From NCBI GenBank assembly GCA_965242865.1, contig CBDETK010000013.1, forward strand, positions 3,360,001 through 3,424,000: a stretch of 64,000 nt of DNA. The letters run 5' to 3'. Each line of letters opens with the position of its first letter. Position 1 is the stretch's first letter. The DNA comes from Candidatus Latescibacterota bacterium (GTDB lineage: Bacteria; Latescibacterota; UBA2968; UBA8231). Both the position numbers and the translations under genes were made by a program. This document shows positions 2 through 25,469 of the stretch, in pieces. Under the pieces are notes generated by a model. The model saw only the letters and a program-made list of their open reading frames with translations, did not search any database and was not told the DNA's origin.

Positions 2-628
2 ATTACTAGTTTGAGTAGTTGGGAGATTTCTCAGGAGCGAGAAATGCGCCTCGGTTCTGAGATGTCTACTGCATCCGGTGTTCTGCACGAAATCGACATC
101 GTGGCCAAGCACCCAGATGTCACTGCTATAATGGAGTTGAAGAACCGGCAGGGGCCTCCAGAGAAAAACGACGTAATAGTCTTCTTTGCCAAGATACTAG
201 ACTATCTCGCCCTCAATCCGGATTTGTTATTGAAGGAGTTGTGCCCTGTATTCATGTCTACCGCGGCGTTCGACCCCAACGGCTTGGCTGCGTGTCTTGG
301 GCTTGGCATCCACCCGGTAAGCCCTAGTTTGAGACCTGTTCCCATACTCGTTGATAATGCAAAGAGGATTAACGTGGAACTGCGTCGGGGTCTCCAAGTT
401 TCAGAAGAATTCCATGACCGGTTTCAAGATTTTTGTGCCGAGCTTAACAATGTATGGCTGAAGTTAATGGATAATTGGATCAGCAGTAGGTTCGGCTATC
501 GTTCTGAAAATACTATTGTGTTAAAGGCGGGTGCTGAATCTGAACCTCAGGTAATCAGCCATTCGCTTCGGCAGCTTAACGTGGACTGTAATTGGCTTTT
601 AGCCAGTGCCCGGGAGGCGATGCAGTGA
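2..628 (+). CDS. PD-(D/E)XK restriction-endonuclease-like protein, 5' partial
   Basis: Frame is open from base 2. Motif HEIDIVAK...MELKNR fits the D...ExK nuclease core. The stop overlaps the next start (GTGA, 625-628). Confidence 0.6.
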   Translation: MTSLSSWEISQEREMRLGSEMSTASGVLHEIDIVAKHPDVTAIMELKNRQGPPEKNDVIVFFAKILDYLALNPDLLLKELCPVFMSTAAFDPNGLAACLGLGIHPVSPSLRPVPILVDNAKRINVELRRGLQVSEEFHDRFQDFCAELNNVWLKLMDNWISSRFGYRSENTIVLKAGAESEPQVISHSLRQLNVDCNWLLASAREAMQ

Positions 629-1716
629 ATATAACTAGCTACAACGTAACCGATGTTGGCTATCACTATATCGGACTGCGCGTATTGGCAGGTTTGCCTT
701 CTAGTGCTCGCCGAGAGGAGCAGACAGACACAATTGCTAAGAGCGTCCGCAAATATGTCAGTGACAAAGCTTTGCGGCTAATGTTACCGGAGCCGAGGGG
801 TACATTCGAGACCGTGGGTGAAAAAATTTGTCCTGAATTGGTACATCTCCAATTTGCCAAGTCCGTCAAGAGGAGGGCGTATGAACTGACGGATAAGGGC
901 AGGGCAGTTTTATCCCTTCTTGATAATCGTCAATTCCAAAAACTGCGGCGCGTTATGGCTACGGAGCATTTGCGGACTTATGATAATCTCCGATTGGTAG
1001 TCAAGAAGCACTTAGAATTGGAGGCTATTTGGCGTCCAGTAGTAAGTGCTGACAGATTTGATAACAGTGATTACATCACTGGTTTACTTGTTCCTACATT
1101 CGGTGAAGAAGCAGCTAAGCAGGCCGACCAAGTATTATCGACACTGAATGGTAGTAATCCTAAGAAAATGGAGGATGCCTTACGTCATCGCATTCTGCTA
1201 AAGGCGGTTCCCGAAATGCGTATAGGCGTTCCCATATTCAGAGCGATTTGTGATCGATTGGTAAGTCTCCGATTATTAAACCAAATGAAGCATAACCAGA
1301 AAGGTTATGAGTTCTTAAAGACGTATACTCCTTGTATGGCGAATTTTCCTCCGAATGATTGGCATGTCCCACTAGATGTTCGTCTTAACTCGGACGAATC
1401 TTTCAACATATATTTTTGCGAACCGGACATAGCTGATTCTAAAGTACTCGACAAACTCCTTAAGGCCATTTACGAGGTGTTCGACAGCTTGACTCCGATC
1501 GCCGGATACTATGACTTACCTGAGGTCCGGGATAGGGTCAGCGAATATTTGAAGATACCAGAAGCGGCGTTCGACGAGGGCCTCAACCATATCCTTGACT
1601 TGGACCCTCGCCCCTTAACGGTCGGCCTACAATACGAGGGTATCACCGGTCGGCGAAAGCCATTGGTGCGTGACCGGGGTTCTACCCAAATCTATAACCT
1701 TATCAGGAAGGCATAA
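625..1716 (+). CDS. Hypothetical protein with probable winged-helix domain(s)
   Basis: GTG at 625 after a GGGAGG RBS. YELTDKGR is a typical wHTH wing signature. TAATG overlap with the next gene. Confidence 0.6.
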   Translation: MNITSYNVTDVGYHYIGLRVLAGLPSSARREEQTDTIAKSVRKYVSDKALRLMLPEPRGTFETVGEKICPELVHLQFAKSVKRRAYELTDKGRAVLSLLDNRQFQKLRRVMATEHLRTYDNLRLVVKKHLELEAIWRPVVSADRFDNSDYITGLLVPTFGEEAAKQADQVLSTLNGSNPKKMEDALRHRILLKAVPEMRIGVPIFRAICDRLVSLRLLNQMKHNQKGYEFLKTYTPCMANFPPNDWHVPLDVRLNSDESFNIYFCEPDIADSKVLDKLLKAIYEVFDSLTPIAGYYDLPEVRDRVSEYLKIPEAAFDEGLNHILDLDPRPLTVGLQYEGITGRRKPLVRDRGSTQIYNLIRKA

Positions 1717-3077
1717 TGATGCTAAGAGTACCTAAGAAGGGCCTACAACAAACGACTTCTCCCTATAAAAAACTTGGTCTGAAAGACTTGCCATTTCCTA
1801 ACGACCCTGTCTCTGATCCATATAATACTGACCCTCGGCGCAATGGTACCATTTATGCTGAGGGACCGATGCGTCCAAGCATCGAAAAATTTGAGCAGCT
1901 TTTGATTCGTCCCAACGATTTCCAAAATAGAGTTCGGCTTGCCTATCTTTGGTCCAAGGGAGACACTGAGTCGAGCCGAGGCATGGGCAAGACAGCGTTG
2001 CTCCGTTACTTTCGGCAGCGTATCAACCAAGACTGGGGGTGGACGGAATTCGATGGGCAATTCTCTGCGCTGGTGGTTTACGTATCTTTTCCTAACCAAG
2101 TAGACCGGCGCTTTATGGAGCAGTTGGCTTTGTCGGCATTGGTTGATGTGTGTGAAAGCGGCGTACTGAGAGCATCGCAGGCCGCTCTACGAATGCAGCA
2201 TCTGACAGACCAAGAAGTTCAACAGGTTGAGACAAAACCAGACGGAACCCGAGATCCCGCTAATCTGTTGGCTGACGACATATTGCACGCCAACGGGATA
2301 GACGCTGTGTAACTGAACCTAAAGGTTACGAACCAGCTAACTACAGAAGGAATACGACCCGAATCAGCATCAGCTCTTGCCACAGGCGGGTTTGAAGACT
2401 ATCTGAAGTCCTTTAGAAAGGACAACAGTCTCAAACCGTTCTATGTTCCCCGTGACACAAAGCTATTGGATCTCTCACGCGATTTTCTTTTCAATGACAT
2501 AGTCCTCTACTTGAAATCCGCTGGTTTCGCCGGAGGATATCTCTTTATTGATGACATAGAGAACCTTGTCGACCAAATGGCGCGTAGACATCGCGTGGAG
2601 TTTGCAAAGGAATTCGCCCTATGCACTGTTCGCCCAGGATATGCAAACACAGCACACAACTTTTTTTCTTGCGTACTGACTACCCACCAACAGGCCTCGG
2701 TAGGCTTGTCTACAGCTTGGGGGGAAGCGGGGTTGGCAGGAGTTGCCCGATTGGATCCTAGCGATCCCAATTCAGTAGAACTTCCGCTTCCGAGTACGGA
2801 CCAAGCCAGAGAGATCATAGTTGCCCACCTTGACTACTATCGGGACAATCCCGGAGACCGTGGCACCATTAAGCCCTTCACTGAAGACGGGATGGCGGCC
2901 CTGTTGAAGAATAGACAACATCCTCGCATCCTGTTGAGACCAGCGGCTTCGGTGGTCAGTCGTGCTGCCCAAGAAGGGGTAACTTCAATAGATGCGGCGT
3001 ATGTGGATGCGGTAAGCGAGGGTGCAACGGTTCAATCCACGTCCGACTGCACTGAAGGTATTGAAGGCGCAGTGTAG
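1716..3077 (+). pseudogene. P-loop AAA+ ATPase (ExeA/Cdc6-like) split by one in-frame TAA at 2310-2312
   Basis: ORFs 1716-2312 and 2466-3077 share a frame and the codons between them are open. Walker A-like GDTESSRGMGKT, Walker B GYLFIDDIE, N-terminal YxxLGLxxxPF and a C-terminal PFT...HPR lid. Confidence 0.75.
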
Positions 3078-7936: not shown

Positions 7937-9049
7937 CTACAATCCTTTGAACAGGATCGCGCCCATGGTGGACAGCCAGCTAGCTAAGACGATGCCGATG
8001 GTCCAGCGGAAATAGGCTCCGAGCTTGTTGTGGAAATCGCGCACGATCGCGTCGTACTTATTATGCAGATTGCGCTCTACCGCGTCGATTTTGTCATGCA
8101 GTTCCCGATGCGCCACGGCACTCTCCTTGCGAAGCGTCTGCACGGACGCGGCATTCTCCGCTCGGATCGTCTGCACGGACGTGTCGATTTTCTCGTTCAG
8201 GCTCTGATAGGACGCGGCATTTTCGTCGCGGAGTATCTGCACGGACGTGTCGATCTTCTCATGCAGTTCCCGATGCGCCACGGCACTCTCCTCGCGGAGC
8301 GTCTGCACGGACGCAGCATTCTCGTCGCGGAGTATCTGCACGGACGTGTCGATCTTCTCATGCAGGCTCCGATGCGCCACGGCACCCTCGTCGCGCAGGG
8401 TCTGCACGGACGCGGCATTCTCGTCGCGGAGTATCTGCACGGACGTGTCGATCTTCTCATGCAGGCTCCGATGCGCCACGGCACCCTCGTCGCGCAGGGT
8501 CTGCACGGACGCAGCATTTTCGTCGCGGAGTATCTGCACGGACGTGTCGATCTTCTCATGTAGGCTCCGATGCGCCACGGTACTCTCCTCGCGGAGCGTC
8601 TGCACGGACGCGGCATTTTCGTCGCGGAGCGTCTGCACGGACGTGTCGATTTTCTCATGCAGTTCCCGATGCGCCACGGCACTCTCCTCGCGGAGTATCT
8701 GCACGGACGCAGCATTTTCGTCTCGGAGTGTCTGGACGGACGTGTCGATTTTCTCATGCAGTTCCCGATGCGCCACGGCATTCTCGTCGCGGAGTGTCTG
8801 GACGGACGTGTCGATTTTCTCATGCAGTTCCCGATGCGCCACGGTACTCTCGTCGCGGAGCGTCTGCATGGAAGCGGCATTCTTATTGTGCAGCGTCTGC
8901 ACCGCCGCATCCTGCTTTTCATGCAGACCTTGAACGGACACATCGAGCTTATCGCTGACGGCTCGCACGTCGCTTTCAATCAACTCTAAGCGGCGGTTGA
9001 TCTGCTGTAATACGTCGCGGGTGGTTATCTCGGATGTCTCAGGGGTCAT
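7937..9049 (-). CDS. Coiled-coil repeat protein with C-terminal TM anchor (DUF1640/CCDC90-like architecture)
   Basis: AAGGAG RBS; 11-aa modules HRELHEKIDTS, VQTLRDENAAS, VQTLREESAVA; terminal FRWTIGIVLASWLSTMGAILF helix. Confidence 0.75.
   Translation of the reverse strand: MTPETSEITTRDVLQQINRRLELIESDVRAVSDKLDVSVQGLHEKQDAAVQTLHNKNAASMQTLRDESTVAHRELHEKIDTSVQTLRDENAVAHRELHEKIDTSVQTLRDENAASVQILREESAVAHRELHEKIDTSVQTLRDENAASVQTLREESTVAHRSLHEKIDTSVQILRDENAASVQTLRDEGAVAHRSLHEKIDTSVQILRDENAASVQTLRDEGAVAHRSLHEKIDTSVQILRDENAASVQTLREESAVAHRELHEKIDTSVQILRDENAASYQSLNEKIDTSVQTIRAENAASVQTLRKESAVAHRELHDKIDAVERNLHNKYDAIVRDFHNKLGAYFRWTIGIVLASWLSTMGAILFKGL
8085..8900 (-). repeat. Intragenic tandem array of 33-bp modules (66/99-bp higher-order units); ends approximate
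   Basis: Recurrent ctgcacggacgtgtcgat and cgatgcgccacgg blocks spaced in multiples of 33 bp. Confidence 0.9.
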
Positions 9050-9247: not shown

Positions 9248-10291
9248 ATGACTGCACCTTTTCGCATAGGCGTCACCCGCGACTTTCTCAAGGCCGACGG
9301 CACCCTCGGGTTCGGCGATATTGGTCTCGACCTGCTCGACGAAGCGCCAAGGGTCGAGTGGGAATTTCTAGCGGAAAACACCACCGAACTGCGGCCCGAC
9401 CAGATTCGCGGCTACGACGGCTTGCTGGTCCTCACCGCGACAATCAGCGCCGAGACCTTGCAGGGCACGGGCAAGCTGGCGATCGTCGCCCGCTTTGGCG
9501 TCGGCTACGACAGCGTCGACGTCGAAGCCTGCAACGAGCGGGGCGTGCTGTTGACGATTACCCCCGATGGGGTGCGCCGGCCCGTGGCGGTCATGGCCCT
9601 GACGTACCTCTTGGCCCTCAGCCACAAGATGCTGGCCAAGGATCGCCTAGTGCGCGAGGGCCGCTGGAACGAGCGGCTCAATTACATGGGCATGGGCGTC
9701 ACCGGCCGCACCCTAGGGCTGGTCGGCCTAGGCAATATCGGCCGCGAGATCTGCACTTTAGCCAAGCCCTTCGGCATTCGCTGCATGGCCGCCGACCCTT
9801 TTGTCGATGCGGCACAAGCCCGCGCCGCTGGGGCCGAACTGGTTGAACTCGACTCGTTGCTGCAACGCGCCGATTATGTCTGTATTTGCTGCGCCCTCAC
9901 TGAGGCGACCCATCACCTCATCGGCGAGCGCGAGCTCGCACTGATGAAGGAGAGTGCCTATCTCATCAACGCGGCTCGCGGCCCCATCGTCGATCAGCAG
10001 GCCCTGACCCGCGCCCTGCAGCGGGGGCAGATCGCCGGTGCTGGCCTCGACGTTTTTGAAACAGAGCCTGTATCCCAAGACGAGCCGGTGCTGGCCCTCA
10101 CCGACCAGACCATCGTCGCTCCGCACGGGCTTTGCTGGACCGATGAGTGTTTCCGCCTCATTGGCCGCAGTGCCTGCCGCAGCATCCTAACGGTCGCCTC
10201 GGGTCGCTTGCCCGAATACGCGGTCAACCCCCAAGTGGCCGAGCATCCTCGTCTCAAAGAAAAACTGAACCACTATCGAGCTATCGGATGA
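9248..10291 (+). CDS. D-isomer-specific 2-hydroxyacid dehydrogenase
   Basis: RFGVGYD, GLGNIG NAD-binding motif, LINAARG, GLDVF. Confidence 0.9.
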   Translation: MTAPFRIGVTRDFLKADGTLGFGDIGLDLLDEAPRVEWEFLAENTTELRPDQIRGYDGLLVLTATISAETLQGTGKLAIVARFGVGYDSVDVEACNERGVLLTITPDGVRRPVAVMALTYLLALSHKMLAKDRLVREGRWNERLNYMGMGVTGRTLGLVGLGNIGREICTLAKPFGIRCMAADPFVDAAQARAAGAELVELDSLLQRADYVCICCALTEATHHLIGERELALMKESAYLINAARGPIVDQQALTRALQRGQIAGAGLDVFETEPVSQDEPVLALTDQTIVAPHGLCWTDECFRLIGRSACRSILTVASGRLPEYAVNPQVAEHPRLKEKLNHYRAIG

Positions 10292-11070
10292 AACCCAACA
10301 AAGTCAAACGCGCCCTCAAAGAGGGCGGCACAGTCATCGGCACCATGACCCTTGAGTTTTGCACCCCAGGCATTGCTCGTCTCTCTGCCGAGGCGGGGGC
10401 CGAATTCATTATGTACGACATGGAGCACACTGGCTGGAGCGTCGAGACGGTGCGCGACCTGATTGCCACCACCAACGCCGGCCACATCGAGCCTTTTGTG
10501 CGGGTGCCGGCGACCCAATACCACTTCATCGCCCGCGTCCTCGACGTCGGGGCGCGGGGCATCATGGTGCCGATGGTTGGCGACGCGCAGCAGGCCGAGG
10601 TCATCGTGCAGTCAGGCAAGTACCCGCCCCTAGGCCAGCGCGGCGCGGCCTTTCAAATCGCACACGACCACTTCGCTGCAGGCTCCATCGTTGGCAAGAT
10701 CGAGCACGCCAACGCCGAGGGCCTGCTGATCGCTCAGATCGAAAACCGCCCCGGGCTCGAAAACGTAGAGCGCATTGCCGCGGTAGAAGGGATTGACGTG
10801 CTGTGGATAGGGGGGTTTGACTTGAGCAACTTCTTGGGGATTTCCGGGCAGTTTGACCACCCCGAATTCACCGCCGCCCTCGAGCGCGTCGTCGCGGCTT
10901 GCGACCGCCACGGCAAGGCCGCGGGCTACTTGGTCAATACCATTGAGGAGGGAACGGAGATGCTGGGCCGCGGCTTTCGCTGCATAGCTTATGGCGGCGA
11001 CTTGTGGCTCTATCGCCGCGCCTTGAGCGAAGGGATTGAAGGGCTGCGGACGAGGGTGTGGCGGGGGTGA
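10288..11070 (+). CDS. HpcH/HpaI aldolase family protein
   Basis: DMEH, VRVP, LDVGARGIMVPMV, KYPPLGQRG, AQIE; ATGA overlap with the dehydrogenase. Confidence 0.9.
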   Translation: MKPNKVKRALKEGGTVIGTMTLEFCTPGIARLSAEAGAEFIMYDMEHTGWSVETVRDLIATTNAGHIEPFVRVPATQYHFIARVLDVGARGIMVPMVGDAQQAEVIVQSGKYPPLGQRGAAFQIAHDHFAAGSIVGKIEHANAEGLLIAQIENRPGLENVERIAAVEGIDVLWIGGFDLSNFLGISGQFDHPEFTAALERVVAACDRHGKAAGYLVNTIEEGTEMLGRGFRCIAYGGDLWLYRRALSEGIEGLRTRVWRG

Positions 11071-11124: not shown

Positions 11125-12846
11125 TTACGACGAGTGCATTTCCGAAATAAGCCGCCTAGTATCCTCTAACAGGCTATTGAGTTCTTGGAAGAGGTCGCTA
11201 CGCGATTGTTGCATGTCTCTGAGTTTTTCGAGTTCCTCATCTATCTCCGCAATGCGCTGGCCGATGGTTTGATCCGCATAAGTGGCAGTCGCTTTATCGT
11301 AATGGAGTTCGACTGCGTGGGCGGCTTCATCAAACCCCGCCCGCACCGCCACCCGGCCTTCGCGCAATTCCCGTTCCAGCTTGGCGGCATCGGCGTCTTC
11401 TTTGATTTGAAGCGCAATGCTCAAAACAACCCCTGCTACGGACAAAACCCGACCAGCGTTTGCAATATTTCGCGTCCACTTCACTGCCTCCCACGGCTTA
11501 AAGGATTTCCCAAAGAAATGACCTATATTTTTGACCATACCGTGAGTTGCTGTACCCGAATACTGGTTGAGTTTGAACAGACCGGAGAAGGTCGAGGTTG
11601 TGGGAGTGAAAGACTTACTTACTAGAAATGACCCAAGTCGGTAGGTTACATCTCCACCTTGTTTCATCTTAGACAACGTCTCAGGATCCATGTCGAGATC
11701 TTGGACTCTTTTTCTTAGCCTCGACAGCAACTCTTTAGCTAATTCGCTCTCCGCGATTTGCTCTACCCTCTCCGCGAGATTGTTGATACCCTCTTCCATC
11801 GTTTTCTGAATGAGTCCAGACAACTCATCCACTTGCTTTTCAACACGCCCTTGGGCAGCCGTTAATTCCCGATTGACAGCATCGGAGTCCGCGCCTCCAC
11901 GAATTAGGTCCGCCGCCTTACGTCCTTCTTCCCTAATCTCATTTACAGTCTGTTGGACCTTACTTTCCACGGATTGAGAAACCTGTGCCTTACCATTCAC
12001 TAATGCACGTCGTTGCTGAGTAAGCAATTCTTGCAAAGCATCTACATCGATATCACCGCTCGACTCGGCTGCGAGGGCCTCTTGAAGCACCTGTTCAAGG
12101 GTGTAGAGCGATGTTGTATAACGTGCAGTTAGTCCCTTCTCTTCCACGAACGCATTGAAATTATCGAAGAAATCGTCAAAACCACTTCTTTTGTGGAAAA
12201 TTTTGCGAAACTCTTCGTCTCGCTCTGCACGGGCCTCAAGCGCGGCCTCAGCATCTACAAAAGAGAGGCGAAGCTGTTCCGGGGTAAACGGTACGAGGAC
12301 TTTTCGGAGGTCTTCCCGGAGTACGCCCTGAACTTCTGGTGTATTTCCCTTAGCGCATCGCTGCATCTTGTTTACAACCAACAGCATCTCGTGAGCTTTT
12401 TCCTGTTCAATCGCGAGCTTCCTGAAATGCTCCGCGATATGGGCGTCAAATAGTTCGTTGGTCACAACAAAGACCAAAAGGTCGGCTTTACTAATCGCCT
12501 CGTACGTTATTACGTCGTGGTCGGGCCGTATCTCTGTGTGGACGCCGGGCGTATCTATCACCGTGATTCCGTTCCAGTCGAGCTGTTGTACCTGTTGAGT
12601 CGTAATACCAGCCCCAATAGCTATGTCTTCTCGCCCCGTCATCACCTTGAGAATCGAAGACTTGCCAGCACTGTATTGACCGGCAAAGACTACATGGACA
12701 GCTTTATCAGGCGGTGCAACTTCTTTCGGAATCCGTTGAGCAAGCTCTCGCACCTTGTCAAAAGGCGCATCTTTGATAACTCTTTCTGCCTTCTTGAGTA
12801 GAGTCTGTCCCCTTTCCAAGCATGATTGAATATGTACAGTTTTCAT
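11125..12846 (-). CDS. Dynamin-like GTPase B
   Basis: G1 GQYSAGKS, G2 ITT, G3 DTPG, G4 NKM; long helical C-terminal half with a hydrophobic segment; AT-richer than the flanks. Confidence 0.8.
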   Translation of the reverse strand: MKTVHIQSCLERGQTLLKKAERVIKDAPFDKVRELAQRIPKEVAPPDKAVHVVFAGQYSAGKSSILKVMTGREDIAIGAGITTQQVQQLDWNGITVIDTPGVHTEIRPDHDVITYEAISKADLLVFVVTNELFDAHIAEHFRKLAIEQEKAHEMLLVVNKMQRCAKGNTPEVQGVLREDLRKVLVPFTPEQLRLSFVDAEAALEARAERDEEFRKIFHKRSGFDDFFDNFNAFVEEKGLTARYTTSLYTLEQVLQEALAAESSGDIDVDALQELLTQQRRALVNGKAQVSQSVESKVQQTVNEIREEGRKAADLIRGGADSDAVNRELTAAQGRVEKQVDELSGLIQKTMEEGINNLAERVEQIAESELAKELLSRLRKRVQDLDMDPETLSKMKQGGDVTYRLGSFLVSKSFTPTTSTFSGLFKLNQYSGTATHGMVKNIGHFFGKSFKPWEAVKWTRNIANAGRVLSVAGVVLSIALQIKEDADAAKLERELREGRVAVRAGFDEAAHAVELHYDKATATYADQTIGQRIAEIDEELEKLRDMQQSRSDLFQELNSLLEDTRRLISEMHSS

Positions 12847-14976
12847 TCAATGGCTCCTTTCTGAGTTCATCACATGGAGTTCGGTTAGCTGTTGCGCCAA
12901 CTTGATCCGATAGATGCCAACCGAGTCGAGTGGTCCTATAGGCACATGCGCGACTTGAATTTTTGATTCAATACTGACTTTGTCCGGATCACAGTTGCGT
13001 CCGATGGCTTGGGATAGAATTGATTTTTCGTCGCGAGTGTTGACCACAAACCAGACATTTTCTCCAAGCAGTTTCCCCAAACTCTTACGCACTTCCTCCG
13101 GGAACTTAGTTTCAATCAGCAGCATGATAGACAGTCCAGGAACTCGCGCTATATCCGATATGAGATTACCACTGTCTTTATTTTTTAGTTGCTCAAGTGC
13201 TTTGTTGATCAAGGCACGGTGCAATTCTTTCTGTTGCTTGTTGATTCTCCAAGCCAAGGCCCTCTGTCTATCTGCCAGTTCTAAGGTGCTCGATATGATC
13301 AACTGAAAGTCTTGGAGAAGGACATCAACTTGCTCTCTGAGAAGGCGTTGGTAGAACCAATCCTTTAGCTCCTTTTGGAGGCTGCGTTCTATTTTTTTCA
13401 CATCACTTTTAAGCCTGTCTTCAAGTTTTTTGCGTTGCCTCCTCGCCTTTTCTTCTCGGTCTCCGAAGAACCAAGAAAAGATACGTCCTATGACCCCAAA
13501 TGCTGCTGCTACCAAACCAAGAGGACCGCTGGAAAGAATCAAAGCAGCGAGACCAAGCCCGCTAGCAGTAATCGTGGTCATCCATTTCCAAGCACGTTTT
13601 GCGTCGAATATAGAGTCCATGCTAATTCTGCGTTCGCCAGCAAACGTACCGACAAACTTCAGTTCGGATTCAAGTTGTCGTGAAACTTCTGACAGTTCAC
13701 TTTGCATTTCGTTCTGAATCTGCTCAATAAGTTTATTTCTCTTTCGCTCAATGCCTTGACTCTCAACTAGGTGCTTCCAGCGTTCGCCAGCATCCCGTGA
13801 TTCGTAGTTGTCTTCCGCAAATCCCGGAATTTTAGCGCGTAGCGAGTTCATCTCTTTTTCGACGAATGTATCAATGCGCTCTTTGCCACTTTTGCGAAAT
13901 CGATCAGACCACGACTTAACTTGGCGATTCTTGTCTATGAGAACTCTGCCACTGGACGAGTTCTGGGCACTAAAGTCCAACAATTTTTCGCTAAACTCAA
14001 ACATTGGAACGACAGCACCATCAATGAAGCTCTTCCATCTCAAGAATGTTCCACGTTCGACTACTTCCGATACAATTTGCTTTTCGACAGCGTTGAAGCG
14101 ACTCGCGTGTTCCAACTCGCTATGCTGAGGTTCACCGGGCTGCTGAGATAGAAATTTTGATTGCAAATGGGTGTAAACGAAATATATTCGCCTACCCGGA
14201 CTGTATCTTTCCGCAAACTCGTGGAATTGTCGGACGATAGCATCGAAATCCTTTCGTTTTCGGTTGAACCAATTCCTTTTTAGAAAAAGGCTCACATCGT
14301 CTGCATCGTTGAGAGCGGTTTTAACATTGCAGATACCCACAATCGGTTTGCCGAGAGCCCGAACACGTGCGAAACACTCCGCTTCCTCGTTCTGTGGCGC
14401 ATCGTCAGTAATTAGAAAAAGCACGAGGTCCGATTGCTGGGCGGCTTCGAACGCCTTTTCTTCGTCCTCACGGCCCTCAAACGCAGCTATACCGGGCACA
14501 TCGGTAATTTTGAGCCCTTCCCAGTCATAGCTACGCACATCTCGAGTCGTGCGCTGGCCTCCCTTGCCGATGGACGAACCGTCGCCGTTAGTCAAAATCT
14601 CCATCAACGTTGATTTACCTGTCATCGTGCGGCCAAAGAGGGCAATAGAGAATTTGTCTAACCGTGTATGGTTCTCTTCTACTTGGCGCACCTGTTTTTC
14701 GTGCAACGAATAGAGTTCCGACACCACTTGTTGTAGCTGTTTTTGGGTCTTCTTTTCAATGTCAGAGGTCTGGATATTTCCATCTTTCAGGCTTGTCAGT
14801 TGTTGTTTCAAATCCTCTGAAATCTCGTCTATAGCAACCTTGATTCCGTCGAGGTTGCCCTTTGCAATCTTATATCCTTCACGGGCTGATCGAGAGCATT
14901 TATCAAGGGCCTTCTGCAACTCGGTCTTTTTTTGAAAAATTCTTGAGATTCTTGAAATTGCTCTATTCATTAACAT
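12847..14976 (-). CDS. Dynamin-like GTPase A with N-terminal coiled coil, hydrophobic hairpin and KH-like C-terminus
   Basis: G1 GRTMTGKS, G2 RTT, G3 DVPG; AAGGA RBS before the ATG at 14976; the stop abuts the start of GTPase B. Confidence 0.8.
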   Translation of the reverse strand: MLMNRAISRISRIFQKKTELQKALDKCSRSAREGYKIAKGNLDGIKVAIDEISEDLKQQLTSLKDGNIQTSDIEKKTQKQLQQVVSELYSLHEKQVRQVEENHTRLDKFSIALFGRTMTGKSTLMEILTNGDGSSIGKGGQRTTRDVRSYDWEGLKITDVPGIAAFEGREDEEKAFEAAQQSDLVLFLITDDAPQNEEAECFARVRALGKPIVGICNVKTALNDADDVSLFLKRNWFNRKRKDFDAIVRQFHEFAERYSPGRRIYFVYTHLQSKFLSQQPGEPQHSELEHASRFNAVEKQIVSEVVERGTFLRWKSFIDGAVVPMFEFSEKLLDFSAQNSSSGRVLIDKNRQVKSWSDRFRKSGKERIDTFVEKEMNSLRAKIPGFAEDNYESRDAGERWKHLVESQGIERKRNKLIEQIQNEMQSELSEVSRQLESELKFVGTFAGERRISMDSIFDAKRAWKWMTTITASGLGLAALILSSGPLGLVAAAFGVIGRIFSWFFGDREEKARRQRKKLEDRLKSDVKKIERSLQKELKDWFYQRLLREQVDVLLQDFQLIISSTLELADRQRALAWRINKQQKELHRALINKALEQLKNKDSGNLISDIARVPGLSIMLLIETKFPEEVRKSLGKLLGENVWFVVNTRDEKSILSQAIGRNCDPDKVSIESKIQVAHVPIGPLDSVGIYRIKLAQQLTELHVMNSERSH

Positions 14977-15034
14977 AATGTCCTTATTTGAACTTGAACG
15001 ATAGTTCTTAACCGGCGCGAGCGGCACTATTCAC

Positions 15035-15823
15035 CTACTCCCCCTCCAACGCCCGCCGCATCGCCTCCCCTTGCTCGCGCCAATACCCGTACAGCAACGA
15101 TATATCCGTGCCGACGCAAAAGTGCCGCACCCCCATGTCGAGATAACGCTTGGCGTCGTCGGCTGAGTTGATCTCGGCGCGCGGATGGATGCCCATTTCC
15201 AAGGCGGTCTTAAAGACCTTTGCTTCGGCGGCGGCAATTTCCGGTGCGCCGCGCTGACCGGCCTTGCCGACGCTCATGGAGTAATCGGCCCCTCCCCACT
15301 GGACCATCTCGACTCCTTCCACCGAGAGCATGGCCTCCAAGTCGGCGACAGCACTCTGCTTTTCGATCATCAACACCACGACCACGTCGCGCAACGCTTG
15401 AACGTACTCCGGGGTGCCGCCGTAGCTCATATAGGCAAAGCGCCGCATGGCGACCCCGTAGGTGCCTTCGTCGCCGGGCGCATCGGCGCGCACACAGCGC
15501 ACACAGGCCCGGGCGTCGTCTGGATCGCGCACATCGGCAAAGAGGACGCTGCCAAAGCCCGACCCAATGGCCCGTTGGGCCACGTAAGCGCGGTTTTCGG
15601 CATCGACCTTGATCATCGTTCCCAAATCCCATAGCTCGGCGGCTCGGGCGAGATTGTCCAAGTCGTGCAGGTCAAAGGGGGCGTACTCGGCGACAAACTC
15701 CACGTAGTCGTACGCGCCGGTATGCCCTAGAGCTTCGACGACCGACGGCCAAGTGGTGTGAATGTGGGTGGCGAGCGTCGGCTCACCGGCGTTGAGTTTT
15801 TCGCGCAGCTTGTTGGGTCTCAT
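15035..15823 (-). CDS. HpcH/HpaI aldolase family protein
   Basis: MRPNKLREKL start, VVLMIEK, WGGADYSMS motifs. Confidence 0.85.
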   Translation of the reverse strand: MRPNKLREKLNAGEPTLATHIHTTWPSVVEALGHTGAYDYVEFVAEYAPFDLHDLDNLARAAELWDLGTMIKVDAENRAYVAQRAIGSGFGSVLFADVRDPDDARACVRCVRADAPGDEGTYGVAMRRFAYMSYGGTPEYVQALRDVVVVLMIEKQSAVADLEAMLSVEGVEMVQWGGADYSMSVGKAGQRGAPEIAAAEAKVFKTALEMGIHPRAEINSADDAKRYLDMGVRHFCVGTDISLLYGYWREQGEAMRRALEGE

Positions 15824-24698: not shown

Positions 24699-25469
24699 CT
24701 AGTTGCGCGAGTTGTTTATATCCGATTCCCATTTTAGGGGATTGTTTTGGACGTAAGCCCGGATGTTGTCCAAAGATTCCTCGTTCCTGATGATGTGGTC
24801 GTGAAACGACCGTTGCCACAGTTTTCCATCAAAGGATTTCCAGCCATTATTTTTGACGCCTTCCATATATCTGTGGGTTGTAAATGATTTGAACCGATGT
24901 ATGATGTCCGATAATGACAGTGCCGGGACGACCGATAGTGACGCCGTCGGGCCTGTCGCCGGGCCTGTCGCTGGGCCTGTCGCTGGGCCTGTCGTCGGGA
25001 TCGTCGTCGGGATCGTCGTCGGGATCGTCGTCGGGACCCCCGTTGGGGCTGTCGTCGGGATCGTCGTCGGGCCTGTCGCTGGGACCGTCGCCGGTCCCAG
25101 CGTTGGGACAACCCCCTGTGGTTGTCCCGTTCCCGGCTTGGGCTTGGGACAGGCACGGGGGCCTGTCCCAACGGGGCCTGTCCCAACGGGGCCTGTCCCA
25201 ACGGTTCCGATAATGATAATGATGCCGTGGAGGTGGTTGGGCATTATTTGGAATTGGTCTATTTGGATGCCGCGATAAAATTTCGGCAATTCATTCCATG
25301 TTCTTTCCACCATTCTCCCCGCGTCGTTTGTAACCATCTGTCGATCTATTATTTCCCCGAACAATAGCTGTTTGTTTTGCGTGCAGATTGTAACGAAATA
25401 ATATCCCGCCTGAGAATAATCGTAATTTCGCAGCCGATTTGGTTTTCTGTTACGATTCTTCATTATCAC
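24699..25469 (-). mobile_element. REP-associated tyrosine transposase (RAYT, HUH Y1) with in-frame internal repeats
   Basis: RLRNYDYSQAGYYFVTICT, MPNHLHGII (HUH), WQRSFHDHIIRN, YVQNNP (catalytic Tyr). Confidence 0.92.
24945..25203. repeat. REP hairpin pair plus 15-bp and 12-bp tandem repeats inside the RAYT gene
   Basis: ggacaaccccctgtggttgtcc (25106-25127), ggacaggcacgggggcctgtcc (25147-25168), 3x cggggcctgtcccaa-like units, runs of gggcctgtcgct/gggatcgtcgtc. Confidence 0.85.

Follow-up and report, generated by a model that had tools for sequence, protein, structure and literature searches.

A 64,000-nt stretch of the Candidatus Latescibacterota contig CBDETK010000013.1 (positions 3,360,001 to 3,424,000, forward strand; hereafter the window) carries two abutting genes for dynamin-like GTPases between two aldolase genes. 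Judged by its sequence, this locus belongs to the known Eleos (LeoBC + LeoA) system and, apart from the tail described next, is an ordinary Eleos insertion. According to structural models, the last ~100 residues of its LeoBC protein are a conserved, stripped-down derivative of the KH1-KH2 domains of NusA, and profile and tree comparisons place the pair in a lineage that is separate from LeoABC of enterotoxigenic Escherichia coli (ETEC) and has this NusA-derived tandem KH tail on LeoBC. The reading regarded here as probable is that of a membrane-acting Eleos pair at a variable site, the tail of which may once have sensed RNA and may now serve as a switch that docks a protein.

Relationship of the GTPase pair to Eleos

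LeoBC matched the PADLOC profile PDLC03841 (E 8.5e-100, 334 bits) with residues 19-603 on profile positions 6-570 of 601, and LeoA matched PDLC03839 (E 4.2e-114, 381 bits) with residues 2-571 on positions 6-555 of 559. The pair is assigned to Eleos because both matches are near full length. The first-pass annotation of the window had proposed an Eleos-like but possibly distinct membrane-acting defence system; the Eleos-like, membrane-acting defence pair stood, and the suggestion of a distinct system was given up in view of these strong matches to canonical profiles, an outcome that the annotation itself had named as refuting it. On LeoA, Pfam MMR_HSR1 and Dynamin_N were above cut-off and DLP_helical reached 25.2 bits (cut-off 25.5), and LeoA is classed as probably dynamin-like from the Dynamin_N match and this just-sub-threshold one. 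When the model of LeoBC was searched with Foldseek, the top matches were BDLP (2j69) and ETEC LeoA (4aur), and IniA and Cj-DLP were also found. The order LeoBC then LeoA was observed in 73 of 79 GTDB loci from many phyla, the remaining 6 reaching contig ends. The closest named relatives were labelled Candidatus Latescibacterota.

According to the accessible text of the paper that defined and named Eleos as LeoBC + LeoA (10.1101/2022.12.12.520048), LeoBC is the protein by which the system was tied to human GIMAPs. The accessible text of the activity paper (10.1101/2022.05.11.491447) reports that mutation of the P-loop in either protein abolished defence by the Eleos of Bacillus vietnamensis NBRC 101237, that this defence was seen solely against the jumbo phages AR9 and PBS1, that the mechanism was unknown, and that the operon family adjoined defence systems in 60% of cases.

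The principal features of the locus are given below.

12847..14976, minus strand: leoBC, dynamin-like GTPase of 709 aa from the ATG at 14976 (open reading frame (ORF) list, PADLOC PDLC03841, model, Foldseek); its parts in order are N-terminal helices, GTPase, stalk, paddle, return helix and KH tail
12865..13164, minus strand: NusA-derived KH1-KH2 tandem, LeoBC residues 605-704, both GxxG loops deleted (fold and sequence profiles)
11125..12846, minus strand: leoA, dynamin-like GTPase of 573 aa (PADLOC PDLC03839, Pfam)

The C-terminal tail of LeoBC

LeoBC extends ~105 residues beyond its PADLOC profile match. When this tail was folded alone (71 sequences), a model with a predicted local distance difference test (pLDDT) score of 87.5 was obtained, in which two type II KH folds are predicted to be arranged as in NusA. 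All 15 rows that Foldseek listed for the tail model at E 0.001 or better were NusA chains or complexes, including the complexes of lambda N and Q with NusA. As shown by an independent wide structure search, the tail aligned to residues 210-339 of E. coli NusA with Z 11.9 and a root-mean-square deviation (rmsd) of 2.4 over 108 residues, and unrelated folds were found at Z 6.8 and below. For the NusA structures 5lm9, 1k0r/2asb and 1hh2, Z was 11.2-11.9 and rmsd 2.4-2.5, with 108 of 110 residues aligned.

The tail is 13-21% identical to bacterial NusA. The first hhalign of the tail gave a probability of 13%, a profile built on the tails of close homologues failed to recover NusA from the genome, and a broader profile placed NusA 6th of 53,012 ORFs at E 5.1. 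Against 177,635 PDB sequences NusA ranked first, but at E 0.1. No match to a Pfam KH family was found for pieces of the window tail or in any of 71 tails, and an ESM Atlas search with LeoBC residues 600-709 returned no usable match. The link to NusA reached significance only when more diverse tails and the fold were used. When the tail was aligned with the clade's own NusA KH pair, hhalign gave a probability of 92.6 (E 4.6e-7) with gaps at both GxxG loops, and the motifs ARxPG, GE and RLA-type were common to the tail and NusA KH. A profile of 139 LeoBC tails matched just the window LeoBC and the host NusA (E 1.9e-7) among the 53,012 ORFs of the genome; since tails that keep a loop went into this profile, it serves as a bridge and does not test the loopless tail by itself.

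Over eight close genes, the ratio of nonsynonymous to synonymous substitution rates (dN/dS) was 0.146 in the tail, 0.137 in the GTPase and 0.20-0.39 in four helical and paddle regions, these values being pairwise counts with dS near 1 and therefore rough. The tail is under purifying selection as strong as that on the GTPase, and R611 and R690 of the tail were invariant across 87 close homologues.

An Eleos locus is of a known kind; the tail was not found described in the literature reached. No paper joining Eleos to NusA or KH was found in the literature searched, which excluded subscription papers and bioRxiv supplements. Papers retrieved for dynamin-like proteins and NusA were, as judged by title and start of abstract, not on the subject, and the word "dynamin" was absent from the main text of a KH review (PMC11261784).

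Tail states among LeoBC relatives

The tail was present in 70 of the 73 full-length GTDB LeoBC proteins, a count that leaves out 6 of the 79 as partial, split or fused. By a NusA family search, a second, distant Eleos pair was found in genome G002 (G002:C1:34544-38556; L072:6545-10557), the LeoBC of which has both GxxG loops and scored above cut-off for Pfam KH_5 and KH_2. Of the 25 matches from that query, 20 were proteins of LeoBC size with a NusA-like KH family among their precomputed annotations, and both-loop relatives aligned to NusA KH at an hhalign probability of 99.7. After the G002 pair come two ORFs that, on weak Pfam matches, are PIN-like and PD-(D/E)XK-like.

As judged from their alignments, the relatives show three tail states: both loops, the KH2 loop alone, and none. 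A tail-free LeoBC core profile from 14 seeds, 9 of them of the tailed lineage, collected 1,399 clusters at E 1e-30, and tail states were tallied in the best 150, a sample biased toward the seeds. By pattern, 123 of these were loopless tandems, 10 had the KH2 loop, 10 were KH1-only or short, 5 were truncated and 2 gave no match. By eye, 3 of the 123 tails called loopless keep a remnant of the KH2 loop and 1 of the 10 KH2-loop tails belongs to the both-loop group; ~12 of the best 150 retain the KH2 glycine loop. When the tail-free PADLOC profile was used in further draws, the tail was found in 1 of 4 new Bacillales-type loci and was absent from the sole new gammaproteobacterial locus; draws of 400 Gammaproteobacteria and 401 third-phylum genomes held 1 and 0 LeoBC loci besides the seed, too few for a tail frequency. 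In the phylum of the window, 16 LeoBC genes were long enough to be judged: a tail match or an aligned short form was seen in 13, two were of the ETEC-like kind, and a contig end truncated the remaining one. All five plasmid types carry at least part of the tail.

In trees of the LeoBC core (106 rows after 61 loopless ones were dropped, and 48 rows in a second tree), the ETEC-like group, the both-loop clade, the KH2-loop clade and the loopless clade, which includes the window protein, stood apart. The latter three clades were well supported and the order among them was insecure (values of 0.28 and 93 in the two trees); only the ETEC-like group rooted the trees, and re-rooting may have displaced support labels close to the root. 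Stepwise loss of the loops would be the simplest reading.

Further variants were observed among the relatives. The window's own genome contains a LeoBC of the both-loop clade that is cut inside the GTPase (G000:C13:1776207-1776905; L181); this remnant follows the same neighbouring gene as the intact G002 pair, and the ORF beside it is, by eye, presumably IS630-like. LeoBC relatives with long N-terminal add-ons were P0150, P0154, P0194 and P0226; P0143, P0165, P0249 and P0283; and L155 and L172. These add-ons we take, by eye, to be ankyrin-repeat-like or TerB-like, and the relatives judged TerB-like retain just KH1 of the tail. Four ETEC-like fused LeoBC proteins (L160:1135-3150, L162:1180-3201, L178:1210-3408 and L179:1255-3441) have other C-terminal extensions of ~85-95 residues; those of L160 and L162 aligned to no KH profile, a weak test on two sequences only. 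Close LeoBC proteins with ~90-120 residues beyond the KH tail were found at L038:6179-8557 (G014) and in P0014 and P0015, the addition being duplicated in P0014. Two genomes (L081/L089 and L123/L136) have two tailed Eleos pairs apiece, and the L081 and L089 pairs are near neighbours on a single contig, oriented in opposite directions. Five IMG/VR contigs (L184-L188) each carry a complete tailed LeoBC + LeoA pair; no relatives of the pair were found in the GenBank phage collection, and among sequencing runs no holder from RNA was listed. Eleven short stand-alone tail matches, mostly on short contigs, look like fragments.

Organization and variability of the locus

The remaining features of the locus are as follows.

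14611..14634, minus strand: P-loop (G1) of LeoBC, residues 115-122, with the G2 Thr near 143-144, G3 at 159-162 and G4-like at 217-219
13462..13647, minus strand: stalk-tip paddle of LeoBC, residues 444-505, glycine-rich and hydrophobic, a candidate membrane-binding segment (pLDDT <50)
12658..12681, minus strand: P-loop (G1) of LeoA, residues 56-63, with G2 near 81-83, G3 at 98-101 and G4 at 159-161
11410..11466, minus strand: hydrophobic segment of LeoA, residues 461-479, a candidate paddle (Kyte-Doolittle hydropathy over 19 residues (KD19) 1.79)
14981..14985, minus strand: Shine-Dalgarno-like AAGGA, 10 nt before the ATG at 14970 (read from sequence)
15035..15823, minus strand: upstream HpcH/HpaI aldolase (PF03328), flank only, co-oriented with the pair and with its stop 58 nt before the ATG at 14976
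10288..11070, plus strand: downstream convergent HpcH/HpaI aldolase (PF03328), flank only

The leoBC frame is open back to a GTG at 15027. Its true start is probably the ATG at 14970, giving 707 aa, because AAGGA lies at 14985-14981 and the three closest homologues are 707 aa long. The TGA of leoBC (12849-12847) directly abuts the ATG of leoA (12846-12844) with zero gap. Each of the two proteins has the motifs G1, G2, G3 and G4, which are invariant or nearly so in LeoBC (87 homologues) and invariant in the LeoA columns (59 homologues). The LeoBC model (pLDDT 79) has a GTPase with long helical stalks and a long return helix (507-596). The most hydrophobic 19-residue spans are 478-496 in LeoBC (KD 2.01) and the candidate paddle of LeoA, and by analogy with BDLP and LeoA the LeoBC paddle would have a membrane role. 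The GC content of the insert is 47.6%, versus 60.6% in the genome, and GC at third codon positions (GC3) is 0.48 and 0.50 in the GTPase genes versus 0.78 and 0.80 in the two aldolases. Besides the pair, ORFs of at least 100 aa between the aldolases are limited to four short opposite-strand frames, all overlapping the two genes. No mobility gene was found there in the ORF list of the window, and no terminal or target-site repeats were found around the insert. The first-pass annotation had likewise described two abutting (TGA-ATG) GTPase genes, AT-richer than their flanks and set between two aldolase genes, each product with helical stalks and a hydrophobic segment, and with no mobility gene, and this description was borne out; it made no mention of the C-terminal domain encoded at 12865-13164.

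The upstream aldolase is 93-96% identical across close genus genomes. The two aldolases are adjacent in 26 of 31 genus genomes, and the pair is present in 5 of these 26 (G000, G004, G007, G014 and G948); the count omits G015, G017, G943 and G018, in which one or both flanks are absent, and G005, in which the site is rearranged and a 3' remnant of leoA is kept. At the common site the pair is 70-82% identical to the window proteins and the flanks 89-94%. In the rest of the genus genomes the aldolases are separated by 72 bp containing a hairpin, by a small ORF or by different cargo. Across the phylum, LeoBC matches were found in 15 of 168 genomes, confined to 2 of 49 genera, and vertical conservation, which the first-pass annotation had named as a second ground for refutation, was not seen. 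The pair is gained and lost, like defence genes, because it is patchy both at the site and across the phylum. Of the 79 relative loci, 47 were scanned, and in 19 of these a PADLOC match at E 1e-15 or better fell within the two closest ORFs on each side, with no matched control.

Other small low-GC cargo was observed in the aldolase gap of G001, G002, G009, G011, G012 and G013 (L025, L026, L033, L035-L037), and one short ORF in the gap is common to several genomes; the gap is a small insertion hotspot. In G014 the same gap contains an ORF that we take, by eye, to be IS481-like.

Comparison with known systems

Compared by description, the B. vietnamensis Eleos is like the window pair in its two consecutive dynamin-like genes, LeoBC then LeoA, its intact P-loops and its sporadic distribution; it may differ in that the window LeoBC continues ~105 residues past the profile into a KH tandem, which is not mentioned in the accessible text of the activity paper. 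The LeoC/LeoB/LeoA proteins of ETEC H10407 (4aur; PMC4159319) share the dynamin-like fold (Foldseek rank 2, E 4e-9) and the gene order, and LeoC matches the N-terminal P-loop part of the window LeoBC. However, the first gene is split in ETEC (LeoC/LeoB), with no KH tail on LeoB, and fused in the window. ETEC LeoA fits another LeoA profile, PDLC03840 (953 bits), which the window LeoA barely matched (42 bits), and the window LeoA scored 57.3 bits with the NCBIfam LeoA model NF041922, below its cut-off of 325.

The NusA KH1-KH2 domains of E. coli (5lm9), Mycobacterium tuberculosis (1k0r/2asb) and Thermotoga maritima (1hh2) have the same two-domain fold and arrangement as the model of the window tail, whereas the tail is without the GxxG loops, S1 and N-terminal domain of NusA and is fused to a dynamin-like GTPase. 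Campylobacter jejuni DLP1/DLP2 (5owv; PMC6104087) likewise form a dynamin pair in which one partner has an accessory globular domain (LeoBC fold match E 3e-6); that domain is N-terminal and, in the accessible text, Campylobacter-specific, whereas that of the window is C-terminal and NusA-derived. In Bacillus subtilis DynA, two dynamin-like units act together, with a phage-resistance role reported in the accessible text of 10.1101/2022.05.11.491447, but DynA is one fused housekeeping gene and the window has two genes (NF052648, 15.2 bits versus a cut-off of 1600). No CrfC-named model was found among the NCBIfam matches at E 0.01 or better, in a general family scan and not a direct comparison. 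The nearest precedent is the MoxR-vWA ternary conflict systems, in which, according to the accessible text of PMC7159879, NusA-derived RNA-binding domains (S1 and KH) are reused; these systems have another NTPase and retain S1, and the words "dynamin" and "LeoA" are absent from the main text of that paper.

Proposed mechanism and alternative explanations

The pair would probably be transcribed by read-through from the upstream aldolase operon; it is on the same strand, 58 nt after the aldolase stop. During infection, LeoBC and LeoA may co-assemble on the inner membrane via their paddles and use GTP to remodel or seal the membrane or to trap phage structures. By analogy with characterized dynamin pairs, a defence role of this kind is considered highly likely; the Eleos profile matches, the LeoBC-LeoA order in 73 of 79 loci, the low GC, the patchy site and the 19 of 47 loci with PADLOC neighbours all point to it. 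The tail would sit at the GTPase/neck end, away from the paddle, because it comes after the long return helix. It may first have been captured as an RNA-binding sensor; in this lineage, the RNA clamps having been lost, it would dock a fixed partner (LeoA or LeoBC's own head), and this docking would gate assembly and GTPase activity. A fixed protein partner fits best because strong purifying selection is combined with loss of the loops. According to the accessible text of PMC3413153, GxxG is required for nucleic-acid binding by KH domains, which is impaired by loop mutation. In published relatives, paired bacterial dynamins become active only upon joint assembly: in C. jejuni the accessory domain of DLP1 serves to capture DLP2, and GTPase activity is set off by assembly (PMC6104087, accessible text). 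LeoA of ETEC by itself neither bound nor hydrolysed nucleotide (PMC4159319, accessible text). The docking switch is put forward tentatively, its chances being close to, though short of, even.

Several observations weigh against this mechanism. In ETEC, LeoB stops at the stalk and has no KH tail, and ~10 of the best 150 relatives retain KH1 only or a short form; the full tail is therefore dispensable for some Eleos systems. The neighbours of the window pair itself are metabolic genes and not defence genes, and the count of 19 in 47, which has no control, includes loose matches (WYL, an RT/PrimPol locus). In a promoter search, 3 promoter-like sites were found versus 3.8 expected, with zero on the minus strand, so that read-through is an inference. 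The mean net charge was +1.1 in 71 loopless tails versus +4.6 in 15 both-loop tails, but the clade's own NusA KH pair averaged -2.6, and charge is thus a weak guide to RNA binding.

Two alternatives concern the tail. It could be a phage sensor or decoy, in which mimicry of NusA attracts phage antiterminators or transcription take-over factors and so triggers the pair. The entire KH1-KH2 arrangement is kept, the 139-tail profile singles out the host NusA, lambda N and Q complexes are among the fold matches, NusA-like S1 and KH serve as effector domains in other conflict systems (PMC7159879, accessible text), and LeoBC relatives vary in their N-terminal add-ons. However, an identity of 13-21% to bacterial NusA would make for poor mimicry of a precise surface, the tail evolves slowly, unlike many surfaces in arms races, S1 and the N-terminal domain are missing, and no literature combining AR9, NusA, RNA polymerase and jumbo was found; a decoy is held to be unlikely. 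Still less likely is a tail that continues to bind RNA, such as phage transcripts, by some surface outside GxxG, and that thereby recruits or activates the pair. The both-loop relatives, with KH_5 above cut-off and near-certain alignment to NusA KH, the KH2 glycine loop kept in some representatives and the invariance of R611 and R690 would agree with it. The window LeoBC, however, has both loops deleted, loop mutation impairs nucleic-acid binding by KH domains, net charge among loopless tails ranges from -8 to +9, and the invariant residues may be structural.

The other alternatives concern the pair as a whole. It is rather improbable that the pair is a general module for membrane remodelling or vesicle release, as in ETEC Leo, and not mainly anti-phage: knock-outs of ETEC leoA and leoB halved vesicle release (PMC4159319, accessible text), and the window pair has metabolic neighbours, but the pair is patchy, foreign-looking and often decaying (the LeoA remnant in G005, the truncated second LeoBC in G000), and its relatives and the published operon family often adjoin defence genes at the frequencies given above. 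A categorically separate system that merely resembles Eleos is very improbable. Similarity to ETEC is low (27% in LeoA over one 160-residue stretch, no BLAST match to LeoB), the NCBIfam LeoA cut-off is far from reached, and the lineage of the window forms a separate branch in trees; yet the window LeoBC scored 334 bits with the PADLOC profile, where ETEC-like fused proteins scored 321-419, its LeoA scored 381 versus 320 for ETEC LeoA itself, and gene order and size match Eleos.

Other features of the window

At 11-3077 the window contains an AT-richer cluster (42-53% GC) of three ORFs: one of 205 aa that belongs to no family, one of 374 aa that matched Mrr_N weakly, and an AAA-type one broken by a single in-frame stop at 2310-2312. 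No PADLOC match was found in this cluster, which is possibly a decayed or uncatalogued defence locus. A 370-aa protein of tandem helical repeats is encoded at 7937-9049 (minus strand), with merely low-score apolipoprotein-like matches, and an ORF at 24699-25469 (minus strand), with a low-complexity Thr/Pro/Gly insert, is, by eye, presumably REP-associated tyrosine transposase-like.

Implications for Eleos

The standard Eleos profiles cover two deep lineages without telling them apart, and they end before the KH tail. A broader possibility, offered as speculation with rather low confidence, is that in the larger Eleos lineage a dynamin captured NusA KH1-KH2 as an infection sensor, with both-loop members reading phage RNA directly and loopless ones, such as that of the window, serving as bait for phage proteins that bind NusA or the transcription machinery. 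If this were true, Eleos would amount to a GTPase that remodels membranes and is turned on by its own internal copy of a host transcription factor. The conserved non-dynamin domain on LeoBC is a testable handle on what switches Eleos on, and the three natural tail states, together with the tailless ETEC type, make the question of the switch directly testable.

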